Of a stretch of DNA of 64,000 bases, positions 4,269 to 64,000 are shown one piece after another. The first letter of the stretch is position 1, and each line of letters opens with the position of its first letter. The position numbers and the translations under genes were made by a program. Origin of the DNA: Escherichia phage p000y; the sequence record MK047718.1; one strand, written 5' to 3'. The notes below the pieces were generated by a model. That model did no database searches, was not told the DNA's origin, and saw only the letters and a program-made list of their open reading frames with translations.

Positions 4269-7200
4269 CTAATTTAACCTGTGGTGGATTCACGGGGTCT
4301 CTTGGATTTCCTACATTATCGATTAACCGTTGTTCAACCAAATCTCTAAATCTAGAGAATGTTGTTCCGGACGCATCAAATAATGGGCTCATCAGTTTAC
4401 GTCGTTCCGATGGAAGTTGACCTTGAAATATGGAGTTATTGTTTTCAGCGTTATAATCTTCAGGCAATGGATAATCTTGTCCAGCCATAGGGCCTATTTC
4501 ATATATCGCTTTACCTGTAATAGGGTCAAACTCAACATTTCCTTGTGGGTCTAATTTAGCCACTCGGTCTGCATATTTAGTCGGTAATCCAGAATCCCAC
4601 TTATAGTTTTTGTATTTATTAATAATAGTTTCAACATGTTTAAGTGTTAATCCGGTGTTAATAAACATTGTGAGAAGGGTAATTGCGATAAATCCAAATC
4701 CAACCGGATGAACAAAACGTAATACGTCTGATTTCCAACGAGATGATGGAAGTTTAGATTTAATCTTCATTACGTAGTATGCTCTACCACGATTTATGTA
4801 ATCGATGTTGTTCTGAGAAAGCTCTTTACCTTTAATACCACGAACAATTTCACCTTCAAAACCCGGGAGTCTTTCAGCTTTAACTTCCTGTCCTTGGATT
4901 AAACGACCTAAGAGGTTGTGAATTGTTACAGTCCATTGTAATTTACCTTTAGAGTAACTTCTCTCGATATACGTCACATTACAACGTCCTGTCGCGGTGT
5001 ATATGGTTTGTCCGACCAAATCTTCTGTCAACGAATCAGATTCAATGATGATATCATATTCGGTCCCGGAACTAGATTCAATTTCAATTTCAACATCTTC
5101 GTTATAAAGCACTTTAAACAAGAATTTATATGATGCTTCAGTTCCTTTAGTTGAATAGAAGTCATAACTTCTTGATTCAAAGAAACGAGACACTAAGTCG
5201 CGTTTTTCGGCGTTTAAGTAAATGTTTCGTTTATAAATCTCAGACCATAAATATTCCCACGCATGTTCTTCTCGCGGATATTGATTTTTAATAAGATTTA
5301 AAAGGTTGTTATAATGGGTCCCATAACCGTCAGAAAGATACTGAATATAAGCCTCGCAGAATGCTTCGAAGTTTGTATTATCTAAAAGATAAGACTCCGG
5401 CATCATTGTAGTGAGCAATGGTCGTAAATCTGGGTCTGCAATACCGTCCTCTTCTACAGGAGTCCATGTGGTATCTTTTTCTTGGTTTTGTAATGATGCT
5501 GTTAAGAATATATTAGTAGGCTTCCAAATTATAGAAACATTATCTCTAACACGATAACTAAAATCATAATAAGAAATAATCTCACCCGATGCTTTATAGA
5601 AAATCATGCCGGACGCATATTTTTTAAATCCGGTGAAATCTACGTTAGGCATCACTATTGTACAGTCACCGTCCTTCCAATATTCATGAACTTCACGGTC
5701 TAAAGAACTAAGTGGACGATTCTCAATAACTTTAGTGTAAAGTAAATCAGAATAAATTACAACGGCCTTGTCTGAGTTATTAATCCAACATCGAGTACCA
5801 GACTTTCTAGAATAACTAAAGAATGGCTCAGCATAGTATTCCATCGGTTGAGGAGTGAACGATTCCCATTGAGAGTCTTCAGTTGAAATAAATGCCATCA
5901 TATGATAATGTTTATCAGCCAACCATTCGCGAGGATACTCATATTTAACAGCACCGATTAAACCGTACTTGATTTGTGTTTTTGGGTCATCAACAATATC
6001 CGATTCTAGAAATTTAAAATTACTAGATGAAATAGATAACTCAACACCATCAGTAGACATACTGGTGTACCCAGGTTCAATACGACGGCGTTCTTCTTCA
6101 GTATTACCAAACACACGTTTAAATGTGCCAGCATCATGGTCTAGAACGTAAACGCCCTTATCAGCAGAATCAACAATAGGAGTGGTCCTCGGGTCGTCAT
6201 TAAGATTAACAACTTCGCCGATAATCAGTGCAAATATTTTACCGCCAACAGAATCCATTTTATAGCAAACTGCCTTAGGGTTACCTGTGATGTTAAATGT
6301 TTCTTGTTCAAACAAACGTTCGGAATATGTCGGAGATAACGGGTCTGAATCAATAGGGGCATTACTAGTTTTAATAAAACGAACTTTATCTCGAGCAGCA
6401 ACGTATACATAATCGTCGTTGCAAACGATAGCTTCTGCAATACGTGATACGTTAGCAGGTAATGATGCGTAGTTACCAAATATTTCTACATCAAATCCTA
6501 AATTTAACTGGTCACCAATTTTAGCAAATGTTATATCTTGAGAACTAAATCTCACATCATCAGCAGACCAACGAACGTCAGTTGATTTACGGCCGTAAAA
6601 TAATTTATCATACCCAAGAACATACGTGGTATAACCTGTCTGGTAATACACTGTTCTTGATACAGGGTACCCTACACGGTCATTAAACAATTTAACCGAT
6701 TTCCAGGTTTGTCCCTTATCATTAGAGACTTTAACCACAGGCTGATACCGTTCAAACAAATAAAGAATTCCTTCAGATTCCATCAAATAAACACGGTTTA
6801 TATCATGACACACCTGTTGAATCGAACCTTGAATTTCATGATACTCATTTTCGCCAATAATGAAATTTTTAATAGATGAAATATCCGCATAAGCAGGGCT
6901 AAATTGGAACGATTCATTCATTAGAGCTGCCATTATAGTGTCGTTATTAAAATCGACATAAGCCGTGTTGTTATTTGTAAATTTTTCTCTAATAAAAGTG
7001 TTAGCCAATTGCATTTCAATCATATGTTGAAATGTATACGCGTTAGTCTGAAATGATTCAAATATTTCGGTGTATACCCAATCGGATCTCTCGAAGCCTT
7101 CAGCGGCAGTTGATACACGAATAATATAAGAAGTTAATGGGTCTAAGCTACTTTCGAACCAGTTGCTATTAGGAGTATATCCTAAATTTATCCATCTGTA

Positions 7201-7359
7201 GCTGGCAGGAGGAATTATTTCCCCGTCTGCCGTTTTAGTCTCAGCGATTTCTACGAAATAGTAGAAATTAGCACCAACGTCATCCCAGCGTATTTGAACT
7301 TGGTTAGCGGACAACTTGGATATTCTGAGACTTGTGACTGCTGGCGCTTTTACTGTCAT
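4261..7359 (-). CDS. 7: baseplate wedge initiator gp7
   Basis: 1032-aa ORF, identical length to T4 gp7; synteny. Confidence 0.92.
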   Translation of the reverse strand: MTVKAPAVTSLRISKLSANQVQIRWDDVGANFYYFVEIAETKTADGEIIPPASYRWINLGYTPNSNWFESSLDPLTSYIIRVSTAAEGFERSDWVYTEIFESFQTNAYTFQHMIEMQLANTFIREKFTNNNTAYVDFNNDTIMAALMNESFQFSPAYADISSIKNFIIGENEYHEIQGSIQQVCHDINRVYLMESEGILYLFERYQPVVKVSNDKGQTWKSVKLFNDRVGYPVSRTVYYQTGYTTYVLGYDKLFYGRKSTDVRWSADDVRFSSQDITFAKIGDQLNLGFDVEIFGNYASLPANVSRIAEAIVCNDDYVYVAARDKVRFIKTSNAPIDSDPLSPTYSERLFEQETFNITGNPKAVCYKMDSVGGKIFALIIGEVVNLNDDPRTTPIVDSADKGVYVLDHDAGTFKRVFGNTEEERRRIEPGYTSMSTDGVELSISSSNFKFLESDIVDDPKTQIKYGLIGAVKYEYPREWLADKHYHMMAFISTEDSQWESFTPQPMEYYAEPFFSYSRKSGTRCWINNSDKAVVIYSDLLYTKVIENRPLSSLDREVHEYWKDGDCTIVMPNVDFTGFKKYASGMIFYKASGEIISYYDFSYRVRDNVSIIWKPTNIFLTASLQNQEKDTTWTPVEEDGIADPDLRPLLTTMMPESYLLDNTNFEAFCEAYIQYLSDGYGTHYNNLLNLIKNQYPREEHAWEYLWSEIYKRNIYLNAEKRDLVSRFFESRSYDFYSTKGTEASYKFLFKVLYNEDVEIEIESSSGTEYDIIIESDSLTEDLVGQTIYTATGRCNVTYIERSYSKGKLQWTVTIHNLLGRLIQGQEVKAERLPGFEGEIVRGIKGKELSQNNIDYINRGRAYYVMKIKSKLPSSRWKSDVLRFVHPVGFGFIAITLLTMFINTGLTLKHVETIINKYKNYKWDSGLPTKYADRVAKLDPQGNVEFDPITGKAIYEIGPMAGQDYPLPEDYNAENNNSIFQGQLPSERRKLMSPLFDASGTTFSRFRDLVEQRLIDNVGNPRDPVNPPQVKLDE

Positions 7360-9329
7360 TGTGAAATAGGCTCCAAATCTATAGTTAAGTACTGAGGACG
7401 TAAGTCATTTTCGAATACGATTAACGAACCATCCTTTGTAAAAATAATATCATCTGCAGGGTCGGAATAAAGTTCAATTGTTTGAACTTCAAAACGGTCT
7501 GAAGTGAGGTCAATTTTAGCAATGTTCCAATAAATCGAATCGGCAGGATAATTCACTTCACCAATTGAATAGTATTTGTTTCGTCCGTCAGTAACAGTAA
7601 GTTTATTAAAATCATTACCTGTATAAGGTTGTATATTTTCGTTTTCAACAACATCACCGTCTGCAAATGGACCAATAATAACTTGACCTATGCCACGGTC
7701 ATTACGGTCAGAAGATACTATGCGAACACCGTATTTAATAGTTTCGTTTGCATTTTCTGGATTAGGTCTGTGCGAATCAAACGAGAATATATTAGATTCC
7801 ATCGATCTATCTTTAATCTGATTATTGTATTTAATACCGGCCTCAGGCGTTTTATAGAAGTTTTGTACTTCGCGAACCATTTGAATAGTAGCTGAAGAAC
7901 CAATAATAGAAATATCTGCATCATCGACATAAGTTAGCATTTTAGATTTTGCAAACGATGAGTTAAAAATTTCTACATCTTCAATATAATATCGGTCAAT
8001 TTTATTAATAATTTGCCCTTCAAGATATTGTTCTGATTCTTGGAGTTTATTCAACGCGTATGTAACTTTGATATTCATTTTGATAAACAAATAATCAGGC
8101 GAAATAACAACAGGTGTAATAGTCCCTAAGTTATAATCATTCAAATAGTTTTTGATATCATCGCGTTGGACAGAAGTCAAATACAATCCAGATTTAGGCT
8201 TAGCAGCAATATATGCGTACCCTGGTTTAGATGAATCTGTGAATGTTTGAACCGCTTGAATAATAGAACCAAACCGCTCAGAGACGAATGTGTCATAGTC
8301 GGAAGCGGTTACACAACGTTGTTGAGTTTCGCGTTTAATTGTGCCTAATTCTCTAATACGTTCAATATCTTCAGGGTCACCACCACCGTCGGCCCCAACA
8401 AAGTCTGGGTTATTGCTAGGGTTCTCGTTAATATCGATTACCGTGATATTAGCTAATGTATCAGCATAAGAAAATCCTACAGCACCGTTAGCATCTGCGC
8501 CATTAGTAGAAATATACTCAATTACGATTTTAGAACCCTGAACAGGTTTAAGGCCACCAATATAGTTAGATGTTAACGCACCTTCTGATGTGTTAATAGA
8601 GATTTCGCCTTCACCAAAATAAAATTCAGTGTTCCCATCAACTGTTTCACGCATATAATAGATTGTTGACGTAGAACCAGCGTGAACCATCGACTTACGA
8701 GTCCAGTTAATCCATTCTGCTCCGTCAACATACAACTTAACCAAATTACGGTCAATATTCTTATCACGAATAATGATAGGTTTTAATCTATCAAATGTTA
8801 ATTCAGTGCGAACAATACGTCCTTGAGCTAATCGAAGACGTGGAAAATATTGGTTATTTTTGTCTTTAACTACAATGACATCTTCAGTAGAAACAAAGTT
8901 ATACGGGTTAACAGAAGTATCTTTAGCGTATGCTAAGAAACGAGTGCCACGTGGAATGGTGATATAGTTTCTATTTAGTGCATCCGTACATGTGAGCATA
9001 ATTTCTGTTTGTGCTGCTGATTTAGATGAAGGCAGATATCCGTTATCTTGAGCCGCTTGTACAACAGAACTACGCAAGTTTGCAGTACGCATAAAACTTT
9101 CATACACTGCACTATTACTGAACTGTTGGATGTAAAGAGTGTTATATGCTAAAAGGTCGCACAATACGTTTAAGCGTGAACCTTCAAAATCATAATCAAG
9201 AAATTCATTCTGTCCATTGAGCCATTCAATAATGTTCTGTTTGATTTCGGCAAATGTGCCCCCGATAAAAATCTCGGGAATAGCATTCGCTGTTCGGGTT
9301 AATTGATAATTTACAGGAGTGTTTGCCAT
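7356..9329 (-). CDS. 6: baseplate wedge subunit gp6
   Basis: Track ORF 7356..9386; start moved to ATG at 9329 (MANTPVNY..., GGA Shine-Dalgarno, 657 aa; T4 gp6 is 660 aa). Confidence 0.88.
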   Translation of the reverse strand: MANTPVNYQLTRTANAIPEIFIGGTFAEIKQNIIEWLNGQNEFLDYDFEGSRLNVLCDLLAYNTLYIQQFSNSAVYESFMRTANLRSSVVQAAQDNGYLPSSKSAAQTEIMLTCTDALNRNYITIPRGTRFLAYAKDTSVNPYNFVSTEDVIVVKDKNNQYFPRLRLAQGRIVRTELTFDRLKPIIIRDKNIDRNLVKLYVDGAEWINWTRKSMVHAGSTSTIYYMRETVDGNTEFYFGEGEISINTSEGALTSNYIGGLKPVQGSKIVIEYISTNGADANGAVGFSYADTLANITVIDINENPSNNPDFVGADGGGDPEDIERIRELGTIKRETQQRCVTASDYDTFVSERFGSIIQAVQTFTDSSKPGYAYIAAKPKSGLYLTSVQRDDIKNYLNDYNLGTITPVVISPDYLFIKMNIKVTYALNKLQESEQYLEGQIINKIDRYYIEDVEIFNSSFAKSKMLTYVDDADISIIGSSATIQMVREVQNFYKTPEAGIKYNNQIKDRSMESNIFSFDSHRPNPENANETIKYGVRIVSSDRNDRGIGQVIIGPFADGDVVENENIQPYTGNDFNKLTVTDGRNKYYSIGEVNYPADSIYWNIAKIDLTSDRFEVQTIELYSDPADDIIFTKDGSLIVFENDLRPQYLTIDLEPISQ

Positions 9330-9337
9330 TTTAATTC

Positions 9338-9631
9338 CTATTTTATAAAGACTTTTGACGAGGCCTGAGAAACAGTATCCCCGCATGAAATTGGGTCAGC
9401 CATTTGAACGGCCTTTTTACCGGTGACGTATACTTTAGATGTACGAGGTTCAGTAACACCTCCATGAGTCTCGTATGGTTTTTTAATTTCTGTATGAGGT
9501 GTTATTTGGTCTCCTGCCACAAGAACAGGAATACCGCCGGTGAACACTTTAGATTGGGAAGCATTTATTACAGTAGGAGGCCATGCTTCATGACCTGCTG
9601 TAACGCACTTGTCGTAACTTAAGCCAGACAT
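9338..9631 (-). CDS. 5.4: PAAR-repeat spike-tip protein gp5.4
   Basis: Track ORF 9338..9685; start at internal [17 protein letters not shown] gives 97 aa as in T4 gp5.4. Confidence 0.85.
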
Positions 9632-9633
9632 TT

Positions 9634-10149
9634 TCACGGCCTCATATAAACATAGTTTCGTAATTGTTGTGCCCATTTGCTCCAATTTCCTACTATAGTT
9701 TTTGTATAAACCTTAGTAAGAGTTTTTTGTACTGGAGCCGGTGGAGGTTCTGCACCAGAGTCACTTCTAGAACCGCCTGATGAACTTTCTTCTTGGTAGT
9801 TATAAATCATTTCAACCGTATAACTAAACACTTTACGAAGATTCTGAGGAGCTCTCCACAAATATAACTGTGTGGATTCATCTTTTGGTAAATCATCCCA
9901 TGAAGATGCGGTTTCAAAATCATCATTTAATCGGTATTTCAATGCATCCGAAGAAAAGCTAAACACACTTTCATATGTCCCATATAAACGATTACCATCT
10001 ACCGTAATGCCTTGTGTCGGTTCATAATCTGTTATATTTATTGACACTAAAGTTTCGGTTGTTTCTAACTGTGGAGTAAAAAGGACGTCAATAGACGCCC
10101 CTTCCATGTCTTCTCCTAAGTCGGTATTTAAAGGAAGTATTTGTGCCAT
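9634..10149 (-). CDS. 5.1: gp5.1-like protein
   Basis: 171-aa ORF between gene 5 and 5.4; synteny with T4 5.1. Confidence 0.75.
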
Positions 10150-10152
10150 ATA

Positions 10153-11886
10153 TTACCCAATATCAATACGAGATCCATCAACAGTGTATTGTCCTGAAGC
10201 TACTGAGCTCATTGTAGACATTGTTTCTGCCCAATCACCGGCAACAGTCATATCAACATTACCATTAACAGTCCATTTAACGTTCCCGTTTACGGTGTAA
10301 TCATGATTCCCTTCGACCTGAGTTTTAGCATCACCTTTAACAAGAATATCTGCATTTCCGTCAACAACTATTTTGATATTACCCTTAACGTAAAGAGTTC
10401 CATCGCCTTCAACAGTTTTAGATTGGTTACCACGAATAAAGATTGTGTCATTGCCGTCTATTTGATGGAGGCGGTCTGCCATGTTATAATATATTTCATT
10501 AGCACCAACGTTAACAAGCTTATCGCCAGAAATCAAGAAGTTCCCATCGCCATTAGTGATGTCAAAAAGGTCTTCTACAGTTTTACGAGTACGACGCCCA
10601 GACGGAGAAACTTCCTCATATGACCCTGTTGGATGAACTAAGCGATAACGTTCATTACCTGGAGTGTCGTCAAATTCTTGGATATGACCACTTTCTGTTT
10701 CCATAGCATGAACGTATGGATACTCACCACGATAACTTGATTCAGGTTCTTTAAAAAGGATGCGTGAATCTAATGGAACAGGAGGACCAGCCGGGTCTTC
10801 TGGATCGGCATTTCTAGTAACTAAATCGGCACCAACTCCTGGTGAAGGCGGTGTTTTAACAGGAACGCCATATGATTCCATGTTACCGGTTAAAATAATT
10901 GTTGTTACACGTGAAGCACGCCCTTTAGTCTGTTGGAACCATAATGAATCGCGTCCAGATTTGTATGCGGTTTTCCAATCACCATCGGCCATTGCTTTAA
11001 GCATAGTATTGAATTTTGCTACACCACCAACGCCCATCTGGAAGCACATGTTTTCTAATGCCATTTGGCGAGATCTGTTCATTTTAGCGTAAACAGGACC
11101 TACTTTAGAATTAGAACGAATGTCTTTCTGCATCTTAGCAAGGTCTTTCTCAAATAACGCTGTTGCTTCTTCTAATGTAATAGTTCCGGGATTTCCTGTT
11201 ACTTCACGCCCTACTTGATCGGATAACAATTTATTAATTCGAGACATATCTCGGGTCTTTTCCATTACGATAAGGTGTCCAATACCTACTGTAGGATACC
11301 CGAGATGGTCCCAATACACTTTATCACGAAGTCCTTCGTCACGACGTAACATTTCTGTTATTGTAAAATTAGGGTCATCATCTTCTGGAATATTTGCTAA
11401 ATCTGTATCATCCGGGTTTATACCATAATCCAAGTTGTTATCTTGAATTACGTTAGAGTTCGAATAATAGCCAGCTTCACCACCTTGGTTTAATACGTTC
11501 GTATCATTACCTAAACGTCGTGGATACTGGCCAGTCGGGTCTGAAAAACCTTCAAGTCTATTAGGCTTTTCACGTACAATCCCGCCGTATGTACCAAGTA
11601 CAATCCCGTTTGTTTTCCATTTGTCTAAGAAATGACCATATACTCGAGTTCCTTCAACAGGACCTGTAACAGAACCACCAATACCTGACATTGATGCGGA
11701 CGTAATAGGTTGAATAACAGTCATCCATGGAAGTTTTTCTGTAGGAATACCTTGTACATCACCTTGTGCTCTCTGTGCTGGATGAAGACCAACGACTCGA
11801 ACTCGAACTCGCCCTTGTTTTAATGGGTCCATTCTGTCCTCGACAACACCCACGAACCAATTAAGGCTACTGCTAATCATTTCCAT
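10153..11886 (-). CDS. 5: baseplate hub subunit and tail lysozyme gp5 (cell-puncturing device)
   Basis: 577 aa; N-term MEMISSSLNWFVGVVEDRMDP..., central T4-lysozyme-like segment (DEGLRDKVYWDHLGYPTVGIGHLI), C-terminal VxGxxxxxV beta-helix repeats. Confidence 0.95.
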   Translation of the reverse strand: MEMISSSLNWFVGVVEDRMDPLKQGRVRVRVVGLHPAQRAQGDVQGIPTEKLPWMTVIQPITSASMSGIGGSVTGPVEGTRVYGHFLDKWKTNGIVLGTYGGIVREKPNRLEGFSDPTGQYPRRLGNDTNVLNQGGEAGYYSNSNVIQDNNLDYGINPDDTDLANIPEDDDPNFTITEMLRRDEGLRDKVYWDHLGYPTVGIGHLIVMEKTRDMSRINKLLSDQVGREVTGNPGTITLEEATALFEKDLAKMQKDIRSNSKVGPVYAKMNRSRQMALENMCFQMGVGGVAKFNTMLKAMADGDWKTAYKSGRDSLWFQQTKGRASRVTTIILTGNMESYGVPVKTPPSPGVGADLVTRNADPEDPAGPPVPLDSRILFKEPESSYRGEYPYVHAMETESGHIQEFDDTPGNERYRLVHPTGSYEEVSPSGRRTRKTVEDLFDITNGDGNFLISGDKLVNVGANEIYYNMADRLHQIDGNDTIFIRGNQSKTVEGDGTLYVKGNIKIVVDGNADILVKGDAKTQVEGNHDYTVNGNVKWTVNGNVDMTVAGDWAETMSTMSSVASGQYTVDGSRIDIG

Positions 11887-12461
11887 TATGCAATCTCCAT
11901 CTCACGAATCAAATCAGTAATAAACGAGTTTATATCTTCTTTTGCAACAATTTTTATTTTACGAAGTTTTTCGTTATCTAATACAGCCGCTTCATAAATA
12001 TCTACTGCAGCTAAAGGTCCTTTATATTGCGGATACTTACGAGCTTCATCACCTTTATCGTACCAAACTAAAGGCTCGTCTGGATATGAAACTAAATTGT
12101 AAAATTTCTCACGGTTCTCATTAATATGGTAAAGAATTTGGTCTCCACCAGCATTAGCATATTTCTGAATAGAAGCTTGATACGCGGCTTCCTGAGATGT
12201 AATCCAACCATAATACGGGTCGTAGTTATCGTTGCACATCAAAAGAACCCAGTATAATTGCGGGTTGCCATAAATGATATTCGCTAGTTCTTCAGGACGT
12301 GGAGAGCCTTTAATATAATAAGAACGTAATCTATAATTGGCAGCAACACGTTTAAAGTACTCTTTATAGTTACGAAATATGTCTGTCATAGGAATAGTAG
12401 GTGCATTCTTATCAACTGTTTTAGCACTATATCCTATTGGGTCGAAGAATGTAAATAACAA
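11886..12461 (-). CDS. 53: baseplate wedge subunit gp53
   Basis: 191-aa ORF, divergent from gene 4, T4 gp53 is 196 aa; synteny. Confidence 0.85.
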   Translation of the reverse strand: MLFTFFDPIGYSAKTVDKNAPTIPMTDIFRNYKEYFKRVAANYRLRSYYIKGSPRPEELANIIYGNPQLYWVLLMCNDNYDPYYGWITSQEAAYQASIQKYANAGGDQILYHINENREKFYNLVSYPDEPLVWYDKGDEARKYPQYKGPLAAVDIYEAAVLDNEKLRKIKIVAKEDINSFITDLIREMEIA

Positions 12462-12488
12462 AATAGTCTCCTTCCAATATGAAATTGG

Positions 12489-12496
12489 TATAAATA
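12489..12496 (+). promoter_or_regulatory. late promoter TATAAATA for gene 4
   Basis: Exact TATAAATA 27 nt upstream of gene 4 ATG in the 53/4 divergent intergenic region. Confidence 0.7.
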
Positions 12497-12503
12497 ATAA
12501 TAC

Positions 12504-12511
12504 TATTTATA
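12504..12511 (-). promoter_or_regulatory. late promoter TATAAATA (minus strand) for gene 53
   Basis: Plus-strand TATTTATA = TATAAATA on minus strand, about 43 nt upstream of gene 53 ATG. Confidence 0.6.
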
Positions 12512-12522
12512 AGGAGGACAAC

Positions 12523-12972
12523 ATGGCCTACTCTGGTAAATGGGTCCCGAAAAATTTAAAAAAATACCGTGGAGACCATACCAAAATAACGTATCGTTCA
12601 AACTGGGAAAAATTCTTTTTCGAATGGTTAGATAAAAATCCAGAAATTATTGCATGGGGCAGCGAAACGGCAGTAATTCCATATTTTTGTAATGCTGAAG
12701 GTAAGAAACGTCGATACTATATGGACATATGGATGAAAGATGCATCAGGTCAAGAGTTCTTTGTAGAAATAAAACCAAAGAAAGAAACTCAACCACCTAT
12801 TAAACCGGTGAATCTTACAACTGCGGCTAAGAAACGTTATATGAACGAGATCTACGTGTGGTCTGTGAACTGCGACAAATGGAAAGCTGCCTCAGCTGTT
12901 GCTGAAAAGAGAAATATAAAATTTCGAGTTCTAACCGAAGACGGACTTAGGAAACTCGGATACAAGGGGTAA
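12523..12972 (+). CDS. 4: head completion protein gp4
   Basis: Start at ATG 12523 (AAGGAGG SD) inside track ORF 12379..12972; [11 protein letters not shown]... near-identical to T4 gp4 by recall. Confidence 0.93.
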
Positions 12973-12974
12973 TT

Positions 12975-13796
12975 ATGAGCATATTCCAAATTATATCTGA
13001 AGGCGTACAAGCCCCTAAGATTGCTCAGTCTATGAATGAAAGAAAATGGATTGAGATAGGATTAGAATACAAGAAAGCTAAAGAGAAAGGAATCACTGCA
13101 AAAGCATTTGCAGAATCAAAAGGAATAAAATACTCGTCGTTTACATCTGCAATGTCTAGATATGCATCATCTATTAAGACTGCACAGAAAATTGAAACGC
13201 TTGAATCTAAACCTAAAAATAAACTCAATAAGCAAGAACGTCAACTTCTGATGATAAACTCGTTTCGCAGTTCAATACGAGAAAAGATTAGAAATGAAGG
13301 CGCAGCAGTAAACAACAAATCATCTAAGTGGTTTGTTGAAACAATTAAGAAAAGTGTAAAAGGTCATAAAGTAGTCAAGCCTACGCCAGGCAAAATTTAC
13401 ACTTACGTGTATGATGCTAAACATAAAGATACTCTGCCATACTGGGACAGATATCCTTTGATTATTTATTTAGGATTAGGTAAACATAATTTGATGTATG
13501 GGTTAAACTTGCACTATATCCCACCTAAAGCACGACAACAGTTTCTTGAAGAATTGCTGAAGCAATATGCTAGCACAACTACTATTACTAATAACACAAA
13601 GTTGAAGATAGACTGGAGCAAGGTGAAAGGATTTCAAGGTGCAGACAAAATGATTAAAGCATACCTGCCAGGCCACATTAGAGGAACGATAACAGAAATA
13701 GCTCCTAAAGACTGGGCTAACATAATCATGTTACCTACTCAGCAGTTTATGTCAAAAGGAAAACGTTTCTCTGCGAATACTGTTTGGAAATCTTAA
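12975..13796 (+). CDS. 2: DNA end protector protein gp2
   Basis: 273-aa ORF; T4 gp2 is 274 aa; synteny 4-2-3. Confidence 0.88.
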
Positions 13797-40479: not shown

Positions 40480-41475
40480 ATGAGCATTACATCTGATGCG
40501 ATAAAACATGAAATTAACGGTTTATGTGCTTCACAGATTAAAGTGTGGTTTAAAGACCATAATGATCGCAGAGCGCTTAATTATGAACGAATTGCTATCC
40601 AAGTTCATCAATTACTGGTTAGTAAATTTGATTTTCATATGCCGTCTGAAATCTATACTAATCTACCGCAAGCGCTTATTAAAGCGTGTAAAGGCTACGG
40701 AAAATCAATGGCTGATGGAATCTTCAGCGCGCTGAATAAACTTAACGTTCTGTCGATGATTAACTCTAACAATATCCTGCGTAATCTAGGACGTACTGAT
40801 TTGTTCGGTCGTGAACAGTGTAAAATGCCTTTGAAATGGATTGTTGCTCATCTTAACGAGAACCAAACACGTTTTATGGCCGTAACAGCACGTTTACAAA
40901 TGGGCCTAGATCGTCAGATGAACTTTAAAACTCATCCACGTTATTCAGGTTCAACTGACTTTTATAAATGTGAGCTTCAAAAGATTGCAGGCAAAACTGT
41001 CTTAGTAGTTCGTGTAACGTTTGAAGGACGTCGTCAAGGATATTTTGACCTAATCGGCTCTGGTCTCAAACATTGTGGATTTATCGACGAAGTTGATATC
41101 AAGCGAGACGGCACTGGATACCGTATTGGGTATGTTTGTACTCTTAAAGAAGAGATTTCAGGACCAGCACCAGGACTAAAAGACGTTAGATATAAAGACG
41201 AGCTAGTTGAAGAAATAAAAGAAGTTGAATACGATATCAACCAAGAAGATGCTCTTAAAGACCTTATTGACGAACTAAACCAAGACGTTATTCCGGTTCA
41301 GAAATTTGAATCAAAACATGCTGAGCAAATCAAATACTTTGAAGCTTTGATTAACGAACTTAATGTAACTATTCAACAGACTGACGATGAAATCTCACGA
41401 TTAGCAGGCTTAAATGGTAAAAATAAAACAGAACGAGCTAATCTTATTCAAGTAGTAAAACTTCTTAAGGAATGA
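40480..41475 (+). CDS. hypothetical protein with C-terminal coiled coil
   Basis: 331-aa ORF. Confidence 0.65.
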   Translation: MSITSDAIKHEINGLCASQIKVWFKDHNDRRALNYERIAIQVHQLLVSKFDFHMPSEIYTNLPQALIKACKGYGKSMADGIFSALNKLNVLSMINSNNILRNLGRTDLFGREQCKMPLKWIVAHLNENQTRFMAVTARLQMGLDRQMNFKTHPRYSGSTDFYKCELQKIAGKTVLVVRVTFEGRRQGYFDLIGSGLKHCGFIDEVDIKRDGTGYRIGYVCTLKEEISGPAPGLKDVRYKDELVEEIKEVEYDINQEDALKDLIDELNQDVIPVQKFESKHAEQIKYFEALINELNVTIQQTDDEISRLAGLNGKNKTERANLIQVVKLLKE

Positions 41476-42552: not shown

Positions 42553-43497
42553 ATGACACGTTCACATTACATTGATTATTTTGCAGGTCTTATCGCTAAT
42601 GTTCATGCCCAACGTGCTTCTGGTTCATTAGGATTTGATGTTCCACACCGAGATGTAGTAAGTGGTATTCTTCGCGATTTTGGTACATATACCGGCCAAG
42701 AAAATCATATCTGTAAAGATACTCAAAATGCGTATTCTCATTCATTAGGGACACTGCTTCAATGGTTCAAACGTTCTCGTTTATTATCTTCTACTGTAGC
42801 TCGCGATAACATTAAAAACTTTATGAAACCGAGCTTTATTAAATCTGTGACATCTAAAACCGATTTGGTTGAATTCACTATTGTTAATGATGTTAAAAAG
42901 ACTCATTTAGCTGATTGGTTATCTACCATTCCTGAAACTAAATTTGCTGATAAATTTGCTTGTGAATTCAATAACCAAGTGAATATGCTTTTTAAACATT
43001 CTCGTAAATTATTCACTGGCGGTGATGGTCGTACAAATAAAGTTCATGTTAAAGATTGGGTTACTGCAGTATTCAAACCAACCGGTAATGGTAACGCATC
43101 ATTATCAATTGATATCCAGGTTCCTTATTACTACTCACGTAATCTCGGTACCATGAAAGCCGAAGAAATTAAGAAGCACAATAAAACCGTTCGTTCGCTG
43201 TCTTATAAACTTCGTATGATGTTACAGACTATGGATGTTGTTGAAATGTTCGACGAAACCGAAGATAACGGTTCAATGTTATTCAGTTCTCGAATTAAAA
43301 TTAAACTGAAGAACCCTAATGTGTTTAAGCCTATTAAAGAACCTAAAGCAGAAAAGGTTGATATCATGGCTGAAGAACGTGAGTACCTCAAATCTCGTCT
43401 GAAAGAAGTCGAAGCCCAGATTGCAGAACAAACTAAATCGTTAAAAGCTCTGAATGCGAAAGCGGATGGTTTACGAAATGCCATTGAGGTGTTATAA
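42553..43497 (+). CDS. hypothetical protein with C-terminal coiled coil
   Basis: 314-aa ORF. Confidence 0.65.
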   Translation: MTRSHYIDYFAGLIANVHAQRASGSLGFDVPHRDVVSGILRDFGTYTGQENHICKDTQNAYSHSLGTLLQWFKRSRLLSSTVARDNIKNFMKPSFIKSVTSKTDLVEFTIVNDVKKTHLADWLSTIPETKFADKFACEFNNQVNMLFKHSRKLFTGGDGRTNKVHVKDWVTAVFKPTGNGNASLSIDIQVPYYYSRNLGTMKAEEIKKHNKTVRSLSYKLRMMLQTMDVVEMFDETEDNGSMLFSSRIKIKLKNPNVFKPIKEPKAEKVDIMAEEREYLKSRLKEVEAQIAEQTKSLKALNAKADGLRNAIEVL

Positions 43498-60142: not shown

Positions 60143-62854
60143 ATGAAAGAATTTTACTTAACGGTTGAACAGATTGGTGATTCAATTTTTGAACGTTACA
60201 TCGATTCTAATGGCCGTGAACGTACTCGTGAAGTAGAATATAAACCATCACTGTTTGCTCATTGTCCAGAAAGTCAGGCTACGAAATATTTCGATATCTA
60301 CGGTAAGCCGTGTACTCGTAAGTTGTTCGCTAATATGCGTGATGCCTCCCAATGGATTAAACGCATGGAAGATATCGGACTTGAAGCACTTGGCATGGAC
60401 GATTTCAAATTGGCGTATTTGTCTGACACTTATAACTATGAAATCAAATACGACCATACAAAAATTCGTGTGGCTAACTTCGACATCGAAGTAACATCTC
60501 CGGACGGGTTCCCTGAGCCGGCACAAGCAAAGCATCCGATTGATGCTATCACCCATTATGACTCAATTGACGACAGGTTCTATGTATTTGATCTATTGAA
60601 TTCTCCATACGGCAATGTGGAAGAATGGTCTATCGAAATTGCGGCTAAGCTTCAAGAACAAGGTGGTGATGAAGTTCCATCCGAAATTATCGACAAAATT
60701 GTTTATATGCCGTTTGATAATGAAAAAGAATTATTGATGGAATATCTCAACTTCTGGCAACAGAAAACTCCTGTCATTTTGACTGGATGGAACGTTGAGT
60801 CATTTGATATTCCATATGTGTATAACCGAATCAAGAATATTTTTGGCGAATCTACTGCGAAACGTTTATCACCACATCGTAAAACTCGTGTTAAAGTTAT
60901 CGAAAACATGTATGGTTCTCGTGAAATCATTACATTGTTCGGTATCTCTGTTCTTGATTACATTGACCTTTACAAAAAGTTCTCTTTCACGAACCAACCG
61001 TCGTATTCTCTGGATTACATTTCAGAATTTGAATTGAACGTTGGTAAACTGAAATATGACGGCCCTATTTCTAAACTTCGTGAAAGCAATCACCAACGAT
61101 ATATTTCTTATAACATTATCGATGTGTATCGTGTATTGCAAATTGATGCTAAGCGTCAGTTCATCAACTTGAGTTTGGACATGGGTTATTATGCTAAAAT
61201 TCAGATTCAATCTGTGTTCAGTCCAATTAAAACATGGGATGCTATTATTTTTAATAGCCTTAAAGAGCAGAACAAGGTGATTCCACAAGGTCGTTCTCAC
61301 CCGGTTCAACCTTATCCTGGCGCTTTTGTTAAGGAACCTATTCCAAATCGATACAAATATGTAATGAGTTTCGACCTTACATCTCTGTATCCAAGTATTA
61401 TTCGCCAAGTGAATATTAGCCCTGAAACAATAGCAGGAACGTTTAAAGTAGCTCCACTGCATGATTATATTAACGCAATCGCTGAACGTCCTTCAGATGT
61501 GTACAGTTGCTCTCCTAACGGCATGATGTATTATAAAGACCGTGATGGTGTAGTTCCAACTGAAATCACTAAGGTCTTTAATCAACGTAAAGAACATAAA
61601 GGTTACATGCTTGCAGCTCAACGTAATGGTGAAATAATTAAAGAGGCATTGCATAATCCTAATCTTTCTGTTGACGAACCATTAGATGTTGATTATCGTT
61701 TTGACTTCACTGACGAGATTAAAGAAAAGATTAAAAAGTTGTCTGCTAAATCTCTTAATGAAATGTTGTTTAGAGCTCAACGTACTGAAGTTGCAGGTAT
61801 GACTGCACAAATTAACCGTAAATTGCTTATCAACTCACTTTATGGTGCACTTGGCAACGTTTGGTTCCGTTATTATGATTTGCGTAATGCTACTGCAATC
61901 ACAACATTTGGTCAAATGGCTTTACAGTGGATTGAACGTAAAGTTAATGAATATCTGAATGAAGTTTGTGGTACAGAAGGTGAAGCTTTCGTTCTTTATG
62001 GTGATACAGACTCTATTTACGTATCTGCTGATAAAATTATCGATAAGGTTGGTGAATCTAAATTCCGTGATACCAACCATTGGGTAGACTTCTTAGATAA
62101 GTTTGCTCGTGAACGTATGGAACCTGCTATTGATAGAGGTTTCCGTGAAATGTGTGAATACATGAACAATAAACAACACTTAATGTTCATGGACCGAGAA
62201 GCTATCGCTGGGCCTCCGCTTGGTTCTAAAGGTATTGGCGGATTTTGGACTGGTAAGAAACGTTATGCATTAAACGTGTGGGATATGGAAGGTACTCGTT
62301 ACGCTGAGCCTAAACTCAAAATCATGGGTCTCGAAACACAGAAATCTTCGACTCCTAAAGCAGTACAGAAAGCTCTTAAAGAATGTATTCGTCGTATGCT
62401 TCAAGAAGGTGAAGAATCATTACAAGAATATTTTAAAGAGTTTGAAAAAGAATTCCGTCAATTGAATTATATTAGCATCGCGTCGGTATCTTCTGCGAAT
62501 AACATTGCTAAATATGATGTAGGTGGATTCCCGGGTCCTAAATGCCCGTTCCATATTCGTGGAATTCTGACATATAACCGAGCTATCAAAGGTAATATTG
62601 ATGCACCACAAGTTGTAGAAGGTGAAAAAGTATATGTTCTGCCTTTACGTGAAGGAAACCCATTCGGTGATAAATGTATCGCATGGCCTTCTGGTACTGA
62701 AATCACAGATTTAATTAAAGACGATGTACTTCATTGGATGGACTACACTGTTCTCCTTGAGAAGACATTTATTAAACCACTTGAAGGATTCACATCAGCA
62801 GCTAAACTCGATTACGAGAAGAAAGCATCTCTGTTCGATATGTTTGATTTTTGA
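60143..62854 (+). CDS. 43: DNA polymerase gp43 (family B, RB69-type)
   Basis: 903 aa; exo motifs FDIEV and YNIIDVYRV; pol motifs DxxSLYPS, KxxxNSxYG, YGDTDS; matches recalled RB69 gp43 sequence. Confidence 0.97.
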   Translation: MKEFYLTVEQIGDSIFERYIDSNGRERTREVEYKPSLFAHCPESQATKYFDIYGKPCTRKLFANMRDASQWIKRMEDIGLEALGMDDFKLAYLSDTYNYEIKYDHTKIRVANFDIEVTSPDGFPEPAQAKHPIDAITHYDSIDDRFYVFDLLNSPYGNVEEWSIEIAAKLQEQGGDEVPSEIIDKIVYMPFDNEKELLMEYLNFWQQKTPVILTGWNVESFDIPYVYNRIKNIFGESTAKRLSPHRKTRVKVIENMYGSREIITLFGISVLDYIDLYKKFSFTNQPSYSLDYISEFELNVGKLKYDGPISKLRESNHQRYISYNIIDVYRVLQIDAKRQFINLSLDMGYYAKIQIQSVFSPIKTWDAIIFNSLKEQNKVIPQGRSHPVQPYPGAFVKEPIPNRYKYVMSFDLTSLYPSIIRQVNISPETIAGTFKVAPLHDYINAIAERPSDVYSCSPNGMMYYKDRDGVVPTEITKVFNQRKEHKGYMLAAQRNGEIIKEALHNPNLSVDEPLDVDYRFDFTDEIKEKIKKLSAKSLNEMLFRAQRTEVAGMTAQINRKLLINSLYGALGNVWFRYYDLRNATAITTFGQMALQWIERKVNEYLNEVCGTEGEAFVLYGDTDSIYVSADKIIDKVGESKFRDTNHWVDFLDKFARERMEPAIDRGFREMCEYMNNKQHLMFMDREAIAGPPLGSKGIGGFWTGKKRYALNVWDMEGTRYAEPKLKIMGLETQKSSTPKAVQKALKECIRRMLQEGEESLQEYFKEFEKEFRQLNYISIASVSSANNIAKYDVGGFPGPKCPFHIRGILTYNRAIKGNIDAPQVVEGEKVYVLPLREGNPFGDKCIAWPSGTEITDLIKDDVLHWMDYTVLLEKTFIKPLEGFTSAAKLDYEKKASLFDMFDF

Positions 62855-62894
62855 TATAATGCCAAGGACGGCCAACTAATTAAATGAGAGAAAT

Positions 62895-63530
62895 ATGAAA
62901 ACTACACCAATCACTATCGCTATTGACGCAATCGTAAAACAAGCTTCATCTCTTGCCACTATGGCTAAAGTAATTAGTCAAAACCCTGCTCGTTATAATG
63001 CTATTCTAGAAACTCTTCGACGCCCGGGACTTAGTAATTATGAAAGCCGAGTAATTATTACAGGTGTTGGTAAGAACGCTAATATCGCAACTAAAGCTTC
63101 CGAGACTTTTGCTTCACTCGGTATCCCAAGTATGTACTTGAACACTGGGCATTATTCTCATGGTGACGCAGGATTTATTGCACCTAATGATGTATTAGTT
63201 CACATCAGTCGTTCTGGTAAGACTGAAGAAATGATAGGTGTTGCTAAACATCTTCGTATGATTCGTCCTCAGGTTAAACAGATTCTGTTACATTGTAACC
63301 CTGACATTCCACAAGAATACGAAGCTCTTTTTGATTATACGTTCTGTACCGGTATCGCGGTAGAAGTTGACGAGAACTCTTTAGCTCCGACAATGTCTAC
63401 TACATTGTTGTTAGCGCTTATCGATACGTTCGCTATCAACCTTTCGTCTGAACGTGGATTTACCTCTAATGACTTCCTTAAGTTCCATCCAGGCGGTGCA
63501 CTAGGTGCCATGTTACGAGGCGAACAATGA
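62895..63530 (+). CDS. SIS-domain sugar-phosphate isomerase-like protein (KdsD/GutQ-type arabinose-5-phosphate isomerase fold)
   Basis: 211 aa; SIS hallmarks GVGKNANIATKASETF...HGDAGFI...VLVHISRSGKTEE. Confidence 0.75.
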   Translation: MKTTPITIAIDAIVKQASSLATMAKVISQNPARYNAILETLRRPGLSNYESRVIITGVGKNANIATKASETFASLGIPSMYLNTGHYSHGDAGFIAPNDVLVHISRSGKTEEMIGVAKHLRMIRPQVKQILLHCNPDIPQEYEALFDYTFCTGIAVEVDENSLAPTMSTTLLLALIDTFAINLSSERGFTSNDFLKFHPGGALGAMLRGEQ

Positions 63531-63670
63531 AAGCAATAACAATAGGACTTTTACTATTGATGCTTGTCATGACTATCTACTGGAGCTTAACGGCTCCAGT
63601 AATGATTCCAACACTTGTAATTGGATGGATTATGATTGGACTACAAGCAAAGTATGAATGCTTTAACTAG
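63527..63670 (+). CDS. small membrane peptide (47 aa), hypothetical
   Basis: ATGA overlap with SIS gene stop; single hydrophobic helix. Confidence 0.4.
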   Translation: MKAITIGLLLLMLVMTIYWSLTAPVMIPTLVIGWIMIGLQAKYECFN

Positions 63671-63711
63671 AATAGTGTACAATACTCCTACTTACCAATG
63701 AGGACTTCAAC

Positions 63712-64000
63712 ATGAAAAAAGCTGTTATTCTTGGTGCTGGATTGGCAACTCGTTTATATCCAATAACGCATCATATTCCTAAGGTGCTTGTTAACTATAA
63801 ACAAGACACTATTCTGAGCAATTTGTATACAATTTATTCTGACCTTGGCGCAGATGAAATTATTGTAGTAGTTCATTCAAAATTTGCTGAAACTGTTCGA
63901 GCTTATTGTGAGCAAGAAGGGTTCAATGTGACTATTCGTACAGTTGATGAAGCATACGGTTCTGCTTATGCTCTTGCTAAATTACACAAAGATTTAGACG
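63712..64000 (+). CDS. sugar-phosphate nucleotidyltransferase-like protein, partial (3' end beyond window)
   Basis: N-terminal MKKAVILGAGLATRLYPIT matches the G-x-G-T-R-L-x-P-x-T signature of NDP-sugar pyrophosphorylases; open to window end. Confidence 0.7.
   Translation, partial: MKKAVILGAGLATRLYPITHHIPKVLVNYKQDTILSNLYTIYSDLGADEIIVVVHSKFAETVRAYCEQEGFNVTIRTVDEAYGSAYALAKLHKDLD

Follow-up and report, generated by a model that had tools for sequence, protein, structure and literature searches.

The segment following gene 43 in Escherichia phage p000y very probably opens the known Mosigvirus cluster for arabinosylated 5-hydroxycytosine DNA

Arabinosylated cytosines have been chemically proven in RB69 (PMC13326640) and in NicPhage, which carries both mono- and di-arabinosyl-dC (PMC13390438); Bas46/47 and HY126 are also arabinosylated, as cited in PMC13326640. 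MS/MS and NMR identified the modified base as 5-hydroxycytosine with an ether link, and RB69 gp48 makes 5-hydroxy-dCMP using O2 (PMC13326640). In RB69, the genes for gp55, ORF054c, and gp52:53 (RB69p055-p052, part of the gp45-gp55 arabinosylation region) directly follow gene 43, and ORF055c and ORF53_52c were proposed in 2018 to function in UDP-arabinose synthesis (PMC6024577). In the RB69 reference record, gp52:53 and gp46:47 are split by sequencing errors and ORF054c is annotated 11 codons short. For HY126, the conversion of A5P to Ara-1,5-P2, Ara-1-P, and finally UDP-Araf by AfhE (kinase/pyrophosphorylase) and AfhF (phosphatase) has been reported biochemically (He et al. 2026, Nat Chem Biol; cited through PMC13326640).

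The T4 and T6 locus has the order 43 - imm.1 - imm - small ORF - 42 - beta-gt - uvsX. The Mosigvirus cluster has in common with it the anchors 43 and uvsX, the small hydrophobic ORF, and a dCMP-modifying enzyme of the ThyA superfamily with a DNA glycosyltransferase after it. However, an isomerase takes the place of imm.1 and imm; four additional genes, encoding a nucleotidyltransferase (NTase)/kinase, a HAD protein, a U32 protein, and the product of a 79-aa ORF, separate the small ORF from the ThyA homolog; and the hydroxymethylase and glucosyltransferase are replaced by a hydroxylase and an arabinosyltransferase.

We analyzed a window of 64,000 nucleotides from Escherichia phage p000y (MK047718.1), with a focus on the segment at 62895-64000. 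An initial annotation, made from the sequence alone, had placed a SIS-domain gene, a 47-aa membrane peptide, and the 5' end of a nucleotidyltransferase gene directly after gene 43. The ORFs and Pfam matches confirm this placement, and all of the ORFs lie on the plus strand:

60143..62854, plus strand: gene 43 DNA polymerase, 903 aa, the conserved upstream anchor of the cluster
62895-63530, plus strand: SIS-domain gene, 211 aa, a putative single-domain arabinose-5-phosphate isomerase, ortholog of RB69 gp55
63527-63670, plus strand: small hydrophobic (membrane) protein of 47 aa, homolog of RB69 ORF054c
63712-64000, plus strand: sugar-1-phosphate nucleotidyltransferase, first 96 codons, with an ATG at 63712, cut by the window edge

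With high confidence, we read this segment as the 5' end of an already described gene cluster, the Mosigvirus (RB69-type) one for DNA carrying arabinosylated 5-hydroxycytosine. The initial reading, a non-glucose (arabinose) hypermodification module in an RB69-type T-even phage, is borne out by the downstream genes of relatives and by the arabinosylated DNA of RB69 and NicPhage. A megablast search with the segment matched 160 phage records, with NBG1 the best at 99.3% nucleotide identity. The arrangement is not due to chance: 159 of the 160 records cover at least 80% of the segment, and 153 reach an identity of at least 90%. The phage is a Mosigvirus (RB69-like): identity over the segment is 98.8% to NicPhage and 97.6% to Bas46, differences from RB69 are at the strain level only, and the window sequence is nearer to the mar005P1/NBG1 species group than to RB69. 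The gene 43 position carries a DNA polymerase annotation in syntenic Bas46, NBG1, RB69, and HY126, and these four phages have the order 43 - SIS - 47-aa ORF - NTase/kinase - HAD - U32 - small ORF - ThyA-like - 299-aa glycosyltransferase - kinase - uvsX. The first four elements, from 43 to the NTase gene, are inside the window; we infer the remainder for p000y from relatives at 97 to 99% identity. A scan of 62700-64000 for promoters and terminators found nothing exceeding shuffled expectation; the missing signals are weak negative evidence, and the SIS, 47-aa, and NTase genes are probably cotranscribed with gene 43.

The SIS protein matches Pfam SIS (PF01380) over residues 51 to 181 (E = 8e-10; 39 bits against a gathering cutoff of 25) and is 100% identical in amino acids to its NBG1 counterpart, 97.6% to that of HY126, and 96.7% to RB69 gp55. 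Among NCBIfam models, KpsF/GutQ (TIGR00393; 9e-32), KdsD (4e-30), and GutQ (3e-22) score best, although the KpsF/GutQ and KdsD scores fall under the NCBI curated whole-protein cutoffs, since the phage protein has no counterpart of the CBS half and matches the SIS half only. Other SIS families (GmhA, AgaS, and the RpiR/MurR regulators) reach at best 1e-6; thus, the arabinose-5-phosphate isomerase (API) models are closer. The PDB matches are likewise API structures: 3etn (1e-24), 5uqi (2e-22), and 2xhz (2e-18). Residues K60, H89, E112, E157, and H198 align with KdsD K59, H88, E111, E152, and H193, which we take to be the catalytic and substrate-binding set, and all five are invariant columns in an alignment of the window protein with its RB69 and KLB31 counterparts and E. 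coli KdsD. H89 and H198 also align with both 3etn histidines.

Like E. coli KdsD and GutQ and the Bacteroides fragilis API (2xhz, 3etn), the phage protein belongs to the SIS fold family, with 36% identity to KdsD across the SIS domain. Unlike KdsD (328 aa), the 211-aa phage protein has no tandem C-terminal CBS domains: it stops 13 residues past the HPGG motif, whereas KdsD runs about 120 residues more. Judged by domain architecture, the missing CBS pair excludes the KdsD/GutQ subtype but not API function, and the protein fits the single-domain class represented by the B. fragilis enzyme (3etn, 220 aa). We predict that it is a single-domain API interconverting D-ribulose-5-P and D-arabinose-5-P. 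The bacterial enzymes serve Kdo/capsule biosynthesis, whereas the phage product would be routed to UDP-arabinofuranose for DNA. The annotations point the same way: RB69p055 has been labeled "arabinose 5-phosphate isomerase" in GenBank since the RB69 genome, and the Bas46 gene is a [quoted passage not shown] The isomerization of Ru5P to and from A5P by RB69 gp55 is a proposal in PMC13326640. JS98, PM2, and PhiKpNIH-6 have clusters that are otherwise similar but contain no SIS gene, so this gene is not strictly required. Given these clusters, and given the host enzymes KdsD and GutQ, the phage isomerase probably serves to boost flux and is not an indispensable step.

The NTase fragment begins MKKAVILGAGLATRLYPIT and matches Pfam NTP_transferase (PF00483) with E = 1e-10 (42 bits against a gathering cutoff of 21.2). 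It contains the GxGxxTRLxPxT loop of the sugar-1-phosphate nucleotidyltransferase domain (ILGAGLATRLYPIT), and its 96 residues are 100% identical to those of HY126 XAN60479.1 and Bas46 and 99% identical to those of NBG1 and RB69. On these sequence grounds, we assign it as the N-terminal UDP-arabinofuranose pyrophosphorylase domain of a 561- to 562-aa bifunctional AfhE-type enzyme (RB69 gp52:53). AfhE is reported to be a bifunctional arabinose-5-P kinase/UDP-arabinose pyrophosphorylase (He et al. 2026, relayed via PMC13326640), and the identification of XAN60479.1 as AfhE rests on an equivalence stated in PMC13326640. In the 561-aa NBG1 protein, the NTase domain is accompanied at residues 308 to 409 by sub-threshold matches to kinase families only (Fructosamin_kin at 3e-3, EcKL, and RIO1); structural matches for the expected C-terminal sugar kinase domain, of a protein-kinase-like or aminoglycoside-phosphotransferase-like type, are reported in Table 1 of PMC13326640. 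With the full-length NTase/kinase as the query, LicC (1jyk) was the sole PDB sequence match, and MurU was among the weak NCBIfam matches; PDB sequence searches with the NTase/kinase and with the U32 protein returned no close solved structure. Solved structures of the HY126 enzyme are 9iqc, 9ir2, and 9iqu.

In NBG1 and Bas46, the next 5.3 kb encodes the kinase domain, a HAD phosphatase, the U32 protein, the ThyA-like hydroxylase, and a 299-aa arabinosyltransferase. The initial annotation had suggested a downstream search for a glycosyltransferase, a phosphatase, or a kinase, and all three lie within this distance in these relatives; the transferase that it had expected just beyond the window edge would be the 299-aa protein. 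Past position 64000, p000y would be expected to encode the rest of a 561-aa NTase/kinase, a 128-aa HAD phosphatase, a 386-aa U32 protein, a 79-aa ORF, a 238-aa ThyA homolog with RSQN, a 299-aa glycosyltransferase, and a 182-aa kinase.

From family membership and the conserved catalytic residues, the SIS protein would turn D-ribulose-5-P from the host pentose phosphate pathway into D-arabinose-5-P. The C-terminal kinase domain of the AfhE-type enzyme would then phosphorylate C1 to give arabinose-1,5-bisphosphate, the downstream HAD phosphatase would strip the 5-phosphate, and the N-terminal NTase domain would join arabinofuranose-1-P with UTP to yield UDP-arabinofuranose; these last three steps (kinase, phosphatase, and NTase) are reported biochemically for HY126 AfhE and AfhF, via PMC13326640. 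GT-B arabinosyltransferases would then transfer arabinose, as one or two units, to the 5-hydroxycytosines of the DNA; these enzymes are a homolog of RB69 gp46:47, encoded about 4.3 kb beyond the window end, and a gp3 homolog near rIIA. The 5-hydroxy-dCMP itself would be made by the O2- and flavin-dependent ThyA homolog, and the arabinose modification confers protection against restriction and CRISPR nucleases. The initial proposal of a route from a pentose phosphate to an NDP-pentose holds as a module assignment, but an isomerase and an NTase do not complete it: a 1-kinase, in the same protein as the NTase, and a 5-phosphatase intervene (PMC13326640, section 27, citing He et al. 2026).

Anomeric kinases and nucleotidyltransferases are also paired in salvage, as in AmgK/MurU and in the bifunctional fucokinase/GDP-fucose pyrophosphorylase FKP. 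The phage enzyme resembles these in coupling a sugar C1 kinase to a small MurU/LicC-like nucleotidyltransferase; it differs in its NTase-then-kinase order within one chain and in that the kinase substrate would already be 5-phosphorylated, and therefore a dedicated 5-phosphatase would be needed.

The initial annotation had seen no glucosyltransferase in the window, and our searches agree. A tblastn search of the window at E ≤ 1, with a query set made up of T4 imm, imm.1, gene 42, and beta-gt and the T6 beta-glucosyl-HMC-alpha-glucosyltransferase, detected no homolog. Of 10 otherwise unassigned window ORFs of at least 230 aa that were scanned, none matches a glycosyltransferase Pfam family, and 3 match nothing. 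In Bas46, the position of T4 alpha-gt, between genes 47 and 55, is occupied by small ORFs only.

The initial annotation had named hydroxymethylcytosine as the acceptor. In that case, the donor pathway would be unchanged, and a gene 42 dCMP hydroxymethylase would supply a T4-like hmC for arabinosylation; ara-hmC was indeed reported for RB69 in PMC6024577, and the ThyA homolog is annotated as a "dCMP hydroxymethylase" in Bas46, NBG1, and PhiKpNIH-6. We consider this very unlikely. The ether-linked 5-hydroxycytosine and the 5-hydroxy-dCMP product of RB69 gp48 (PMC13326640) contradict it, and the NicPhage result (PMC13390438) agrees with 5-hydroxycytosine. In the relatives, identity between the ThyA homolog and T6 gp42 is only 29%, and the homolog carries the signature diagnostic of a 5-hydroxy-dCMP synthase, with N at the ThyA D169 position and D at N177 (MRSQNCAVVMQLD in NBG1/Bas46 versus MRSNDVVFGFRND in T6 gp42); the D169N change is seen as RSQN versus RSND in T6. 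The tblastn search for gene 42 in the window, which found no homolog, argues in the same direction. 5-Hydroxycytosine is thus the acceptor that the chemistry and the signature favor.

The 47-aa peptide had also been counted as part of the sugar module. In such a reading, the three ORFs would form one functional unit, with the peptide as, for example, a membrane anchor or scaffold for the sugar-nucleotide enzymes. The start codon of the 47-aa ORF and the SIS stop codon share bases (ATGA), an arrangement suggestive of translational coupling, and in Mosigvirus, Kanagawavirus, and Winklervirus the ORF occupies the same place within the cluster. However, homologous ORFs of 45 to 49 aa are present in T4, T6, DK-13, JS98, and KLB31, and in T4, T6, and DK-13 the ORF follows imm with the same ATGA coupling. 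T4 and T6 glucosylate hmC and lack arabinose genes here, and no such genes were seen at the DK-13 locus; in JS98, the homolog comes after imm rather than after an isomerase, and the equivalent position in PM2 and PhiKpNIH-6 has no annotated ORF of similar size. This distribution indicates that conservation of the ORF tracks the T-even backbone and not the pathway, and a pathway role appears extremely improbable.

The 47-aa ORF is instead a conserved Tevenvirinae backbone gene, unrelated to the arabinose pathway and merely located inside the cluster, with homologs kept in glucosylating T-even phages. It is 100% identical to RB69 ORF054c and strongly hydrophobic, with Kyte-Doolittle 11-residue means of up to 3.0; Pfam and NCBIfam give no family for it. 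By tblastn it has matches in 579 phage records, Tequatrovirus included. Between genera, pN is 0.25 to 0.35 against a pS of 0.6 to 0.8, and the C-terminal motif is invariant. The T4 homolog, which like that of T6 comes after imm, is unannotated. We also considered whether the ORF could be Imm itself and rejected this: T4 Imm (83 aa) gave only a chance tblastn match in the window (E = 0.97), elsewhere than the 47-aa ORF, which is homologous to the separate ORF after imm in T4 and T6.

An envelope role for the SIS and NTase genes in place of a DNA role, with the isomerase feeding Kdo, LPS, or capsule synthesis and the NTase supplying an activated sugar to mimic capsule or LPS or to mask receptors, is scarcely credible. 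In its favor, 3etn, the best PDB match, is described as a "phosphosugar isomerase involved in capsule formation," KpsF/GutQ and KdsD are the best NCBIfam models of the SIS protein, and the HAD protein of the relatives matches the capsule-biosynthesis phosphatase family TIGR01689 (4e-13). Against it, in every relative the genes lie between the DNA polymerase gene and those for the ThyA homolog, the DNA glycosyltransferase, and uvsX, the T4-like clusters have no Kdo-8-P synthase, CMP-Kdo synthetase, or membrane glycosyltransferase beside them, and the virion DNA of close relatives carries arabinose (PMC13326640, PMC13390438). Capsule or LPS genes were probably the ancestors of this cluster.

The module, read as a DNA arabinosylation cluster, is already known, and its pathway is largely worked out biochemically. 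The initial annotation had regarded the enzymology of donor synthesis as not fully worked out; the genes were proposed in 2018 (PMC6024577) and annotated in GenBank for RB69 and for Bas46, of the BASEL collection, and the biochemistry was reported in 2026 for HY126, a near-identical Mosigvirus whose U32 protein is 99.5% identical (He et al. 2026, as relayed in PMC13326640). Our analysis corrects the initial reading on the base, which is 5-hydroxycytosine; on the 47-aa ORF, which belongs to the T-even backbone; and on the isomerase, which is probably accessory.

In relatives, the U32-family protein (the RB69 gp50 homolog) is encoded about 2.3 kb beyond the window end; it has so far been labeled a "peptidase" or a "sugar or heterocycle reductase." In five other genera, a chorismate mutase accompanies the U32 protein of the cluster. 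Cysteines C192, C203, C209, C233, C340, C345, C349, and C352 of the U32 protein are invariant. RlhA forms ho5C in rRNA, and TrhP forms ho5U in tRNA. By analogy with RlhA, TrhP, and UbiU/V, the pairing suggests, tentatively, that the U32 protein could be a prephenate-dependent, oxygen-independent pyrimidine C5-hydroxylase acting on cytosine; we regard this as possible but rather doubtful, and the idea may already have been published. As a separate matter, we found no support for the Mosigvirus 79-aa gp49 as a diverged chorismate mutase: hmmscan gave nothing at E ≤ 10 and profile-profile comparison with phage CM_2 proteins gave a probability of 0.2%. Homologs of gp49 are restricted to Mosigvirus, and the HY126 record has two single-base insertions in this ORF.

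Little is at stake for the three genes in the window, and the U32 lead would matter more. If true, it would allow 5-hydroxycytosine to be made when the host is anoxic and the ThyA-like 5-hydroxy-dCMP synthase, which depends on O2 and flavin, fails; it would explain fully modified gut-phage DNA without oxygen; and it would add DNA precursors to RNA and quinones as targets of prephenate-dependent hydroxylation.

The 3' end of the window carries the following ORFs, all on the + strand:

60143-62854, +, gene 43, DNA polymerase, 903 aa
62895-63530, +, SIS protein, 211 aa (Pfam SIS, E=8e-10, above the gathering score)
63527-63670, +, 47-aa ORF, its ATG overlapping the stop of the SIS gene (no Pfam match)
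63712-64000, +, NTP_transferase fragment, 96 codons, cut by the window end (Pfam, E=1e-10, above the gathering score)

The initial annotation had placed a SIS gene, a 47-aa membrane peptide and the 5' end of a sugar-1-phosphate nucleotidyltransferase after gene 43. The ORFs and the Pfam matches for SIS and NTP_transferase bear this out at the coordinates given there, to which we add the transferase start at 63712, and the GAGLATRL motif is present in the transferase fragment (MKKAVILGAGLATRLYPIT). The 47-aa and transferase ORFs are 41 nt apart, with a GAGGA ribosome-binding site in between; scanning from gene 43 to the transferase detected no terminator and no convincing promoter.

We searched 50,697 phage records by megablast with positions 62855-64000. 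Matches were found in 160 records, with segment coverage of 80% or more in 159. The closest are Mosigvirus (RB69-like) phages: NBG1 (99.3%), NicPhage (98.8%) and Bas46, also named ChristianSchoenbein (97.6%). The encoded products are similarly close:

Amino acid identity to NBG1, RB69, HY126 and Bas46, in that order
SIS protein (RB69 gp55): 100%, 96.7%, 97.6%, 99.5%
47-aa ORF: 100%, 100%, 97.9%, 97.9%
96-residue transferase fragment: 99%, 99%, 100%, 100%

The SIS gene is labeled [quoted passage not shown] in the Bas46 record and "arabinose 5-phosphate isomerase" in the RB69 RefSeq record. Among NCBIfam models, its product matched KpsF/GutQ (9e-32), KdsD (4e-30) and GutQ (3e-22), with other SIS families reaching 1e-6 at best; a PDB sequence search returned the isomerases 3etn (1e-24) and 5uqi (2e-22) and the KdsD SIS domain 2xhz (2e-18). 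Alignment with E. coli KdsD places identical residues, K60, H89, E112, E157 and H198, at K59, H88, E111, E152 and H193, which we take to be the catalytic residues of KdsD. While KdsD and GutQ carry two CBS domains, the phage protein lacks both and therefore resembles the single-domain Bacteroides enzyme. We propose that it is a predicted arabinose-5-phosphate (A5P) isomerase.

The isomerase is probably an accessory, not an essential, component, because the SIS gene is missing from this locus in clusters that are otherwise alike: JS98 (Dhakavirus), PM2 (Bragavirus) and PhiKpNIH-6 (Marfavirus) all have a nucleotidyltransferase (NTase)/kinase and a HAD phosphatase after gene 43. PM2 and PhiKpNIH-6 also have the U32 protein and thymidylate synthase (ThyA) homolog described below; the fetched JS98 locus stops short of that point. 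E. coli has KdsD and GutQ, and one or the other presumably supplies A5P to the clusters without a SIS gene. With ~65,000 cytosines per genome (170 kb, 38% G+C) and one or two arabinoses on each, we estimate that the A5P need of one burst is about the whole Kdo flux of the host. Most plausibly, the phage copy serves as a flux booster.

A transferase, kinase or phosphatase had been expected just downstream. Gene order and domains confirm this in every relative, and for p000y itself we infer it from them. Past the window end, the order is identical in all four (NBG1, Bas46, RB69 and HY126):

NTase/kinase, 561-562 aa, the protein cut by the window end (NTP_transferase domain N-terminal; weak kinase-family matches, residues 308-409)
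HAD-type phosphatase, 128 aa (NCBIfam capsule-biosynthesis phosphatase, 4e-13)
Peptidase_U32 protein, 386 aa (Pfam, 6e-11)
79-aa ORF
ThyA homolog, 238 aa
299-aa protein, RB69 gp46:47 arabinosyltransferase
thymidylate-kinase-like protein, followed by uvsX

The 79-aa ORF, a gp49 homolog, lies at 12143-12382 of the fetched NBG1 locus and 6158-6440 of the HY126 locus. Its homologs are confined to Mosigvirus, and many are shortened to 47-58 aa. In the HY126 record two single bases are inserted in it, perhaps through sequencing error or decay.

Arabinose was found in RB69 DNA by Thomas et al. in 2018, who suggested that UDP-arabinose is made with the products of ORF055c (the SIS protein) and ORF53_52c and placed the module between gene 43 and uvsX (PMC6024577). 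DNA of NicPhage contains 5-ara-dC and 5-ara-ara-dC by HPLC-MS (PMC13390438). In the route proposed by Lee et al. in 2026, gp55 would convert ribulose-5-phosphate to A5P, the kinase domain of gp52:53 would form Ara-1,5-P2, the HAD protein gp51 would release Ara-1-P, and the NTase domain of gp52:53 would yield UDP-Araf (PMC13326640). The enzymology of donor synthesis had been thought incompletely worked out; as cited by Lee et al., He et al. (2026) provide biochemistry for the three steps from A5P to UDP-Araf with AfhE and AfhF of HY126. The sugar-nucleotide gene finding is real and the interpretation correct in outline, and both are already known: the genes are annotated, they have had functional assignments since 2018, and a 2026 report describes the pathway in HY126, whose protein is identical over the transferase fragment.

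The reading in which the donor module feeds arabinosylation of hydroxymethylcytosine has been superseded. Lee et al. showed that the modified base of RB69 is mono- and di-arabinosylated 5-hydroxycytosine, and that the ThyA homolog gp48 makes 5-hydroxy-dCMP, taking the oxygen from O2 (PMC13326640). The relatives' ThyA homologs share only 29% identity with T6 gp42 and have the published D169N signature of a 5-hydroxy-dCMP synthase (RSQN versus RSND); the annotation "dCMP hydroxymethylase" is outdated. That label is still used in many records, including PhiKpNIH-6, NBG1 and Bas46 (12424-13141 in the last two fetched loci). Structures of the HY126 hydroxylase have been solved (9iqc, 9ir2 and 9iqu).

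The lack of a glucosyltransferase in the window also held. Homology searches for T4 imm, imm.1, gene 42 and beta-gt and for the second glucosyltransferase of T6 found nothing there, and a Pfam scan of 10 ORFs that had no other assignment and were 230 aa or longer gave no match to a glycosyltransferase family. Three of these (273-331 aa; 12975-13796, 40480-41475 and 42553-43497, + strand) matched no Pfam family at E<=0.001. Bas46 has only small ORFs at the T4 alpha-gt position. A role for the genes in the host envelope (LPS or capsule), suggested solely by the ancestry of the matched families, is contradicted by the genomic context and by the chemistry of the relatives' DNA.

That the 47-aa peptide is a pathway component is contradicted by its distribution: tblastn found it in 579 phage records, Tequatrovirus among them, and in T4 and T6 a 45-49 aa homolog lies directly 3' of imm, with an ATGA overlap, and 5' of gene 42. 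Homologs also follow imm in DK-13 (ATGA overlap) and JS98. Positions are as follows, in the fetched locus of each phage:

T4, 4228-4377 (NC_000866 26227-26376, - strand)
T6, 2492-2641
DK-13, 2501-2644
JS98, 2486-2623
KLB31, 5992-6135

DK-13 and the RefSeq records of T4 and T6 leave the homolog unannotated; in JS98 and RB69 its annotation is too short, and the RB69 record says just "similar to T4 42-imm intercistronic region". Across six lineages the reading frame and stop are conserved, pN is 0.25-0.35 versus pS of 0.6-0.8, and the C-terminal motif P-x-MIPT-[LI]..W...Q.KY[EN]C[FI]N is invariant; this pattern indicates a real protein, and the hydrophobic ORF behaves like a genuine gene for a small membrane protein in the T-even (Tevenvirinae) backbone. 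In Mosigvirus, the isomerase gene stands upstream of it in place of imm.1 and imm, and the other arabinose genes are inserted downstream.

The U32 protein lies outside the window (10986-12146 in the NBG1 locus; RB69 gp50 homolog), and its best NCBIfam match is a weak one to UbiU. Characterized U32 proteins are prephenate-linked hydroxylases, not proteases: UbiU/V use prephenate as oxygen donor in anaerobic ubiquinone synthesis (PMC10990095), TrhP makes ho5U in tRNA (PMC6599085), and RlhA makes 5-hydroxycytidine in 23S rRNA (PMC5727448), the same base chemistry as phage 5-hydroxycytosine. The U32 gene is accompanied in five other genera by a gene for a type II chorismate mutase (Pfam CM_2, above the gathering score). 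This gene lies directly 3' of it, except in PM2, where a homing endonuclease gene and a small ORF are inserted between the two. The phages are Serratia X20, Klebsiella KLB31 and PhiKpNIH-6, Proteus PM2 and Shewanella Thanatos-2, whose cluster is rearranged with the pair still together. The pairs occupy these positions in the fetched loci:

KLB31, 8291-9702
PhiKpNIH-6, 6001-7403
PM2, 4495-6992
locus L012, 4492-6002
locus L013, 4501-5891

On a metagenomic large-phage contig (L021, 6001-7891), a 54%-identical U32 gene is followed by a DAHP synthase gene (2.6e-70). Homologs of 48-58% identity on further metagenomic large-phage contigs (L018 7001-8086, L022 6001-7083, L019 7001-8098 and L023 6001-7101) adjoin genes for dCMP deaminase, PolIII-alpha, UDG, deoxynucleoside kinase, 5'-deoxyribonucleotidase (NT5C), dUTPase/dCTP deaminase (DCD), a TAGT-like DNA glycosyltransferase and UDP-galactopyranose mutase; on L023, no thymidylate-synthase homolog lies within 6 kb. 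These neighborhoods hint that this clade of phage U32 homologs underlies other DNA hypermodification pathways as well.

Comparison of 18 family members shows ten invariant cysteines, with a C-x4-C-x3-C-x2-C cluster among them. We found the U32 gene in 221 phage records, in each at 80% identity or more. Every host named in these records belongs to Enterobacterales or is Shewanella, and the 57 records of Acinetobacter phages with a SIS gene are all missing from the set. These phages of a strict aerobe carry the rest of the pathway. The Mosigvirus 79-aa ORF, at the chorismate-mutase position, was considered as a chorismate mutase and rejected, having no detectable CM_2 similarity. Prephenate in Mosigvirus would have to come from host PheA and TyrA.

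Lee et al. label the U32 protein just "sugar or heterocycle reductase", and U32, prephenate and chorismate are absent from their text (PMC13326640). A literature search, with incomplete coverage of the key literature, found no paper linking a phage U32 protein to a prephenate route; the pairing with chorismate mutase might be the sole new part of this analysis, its priority being uncertain. Together with the invariant cysteines and the absence from the Acinetobacter phages, it suggests that the U32 protein may be a prephenate-dependent, O2-independent cytosine hydroxylase and a backup to the O2-dependent ThyA-like enzyme. Such an anaerobic route to 5-hydroxycytosine is a coherent hypothesis, since the ThyA-like hydroxylase needs O2.
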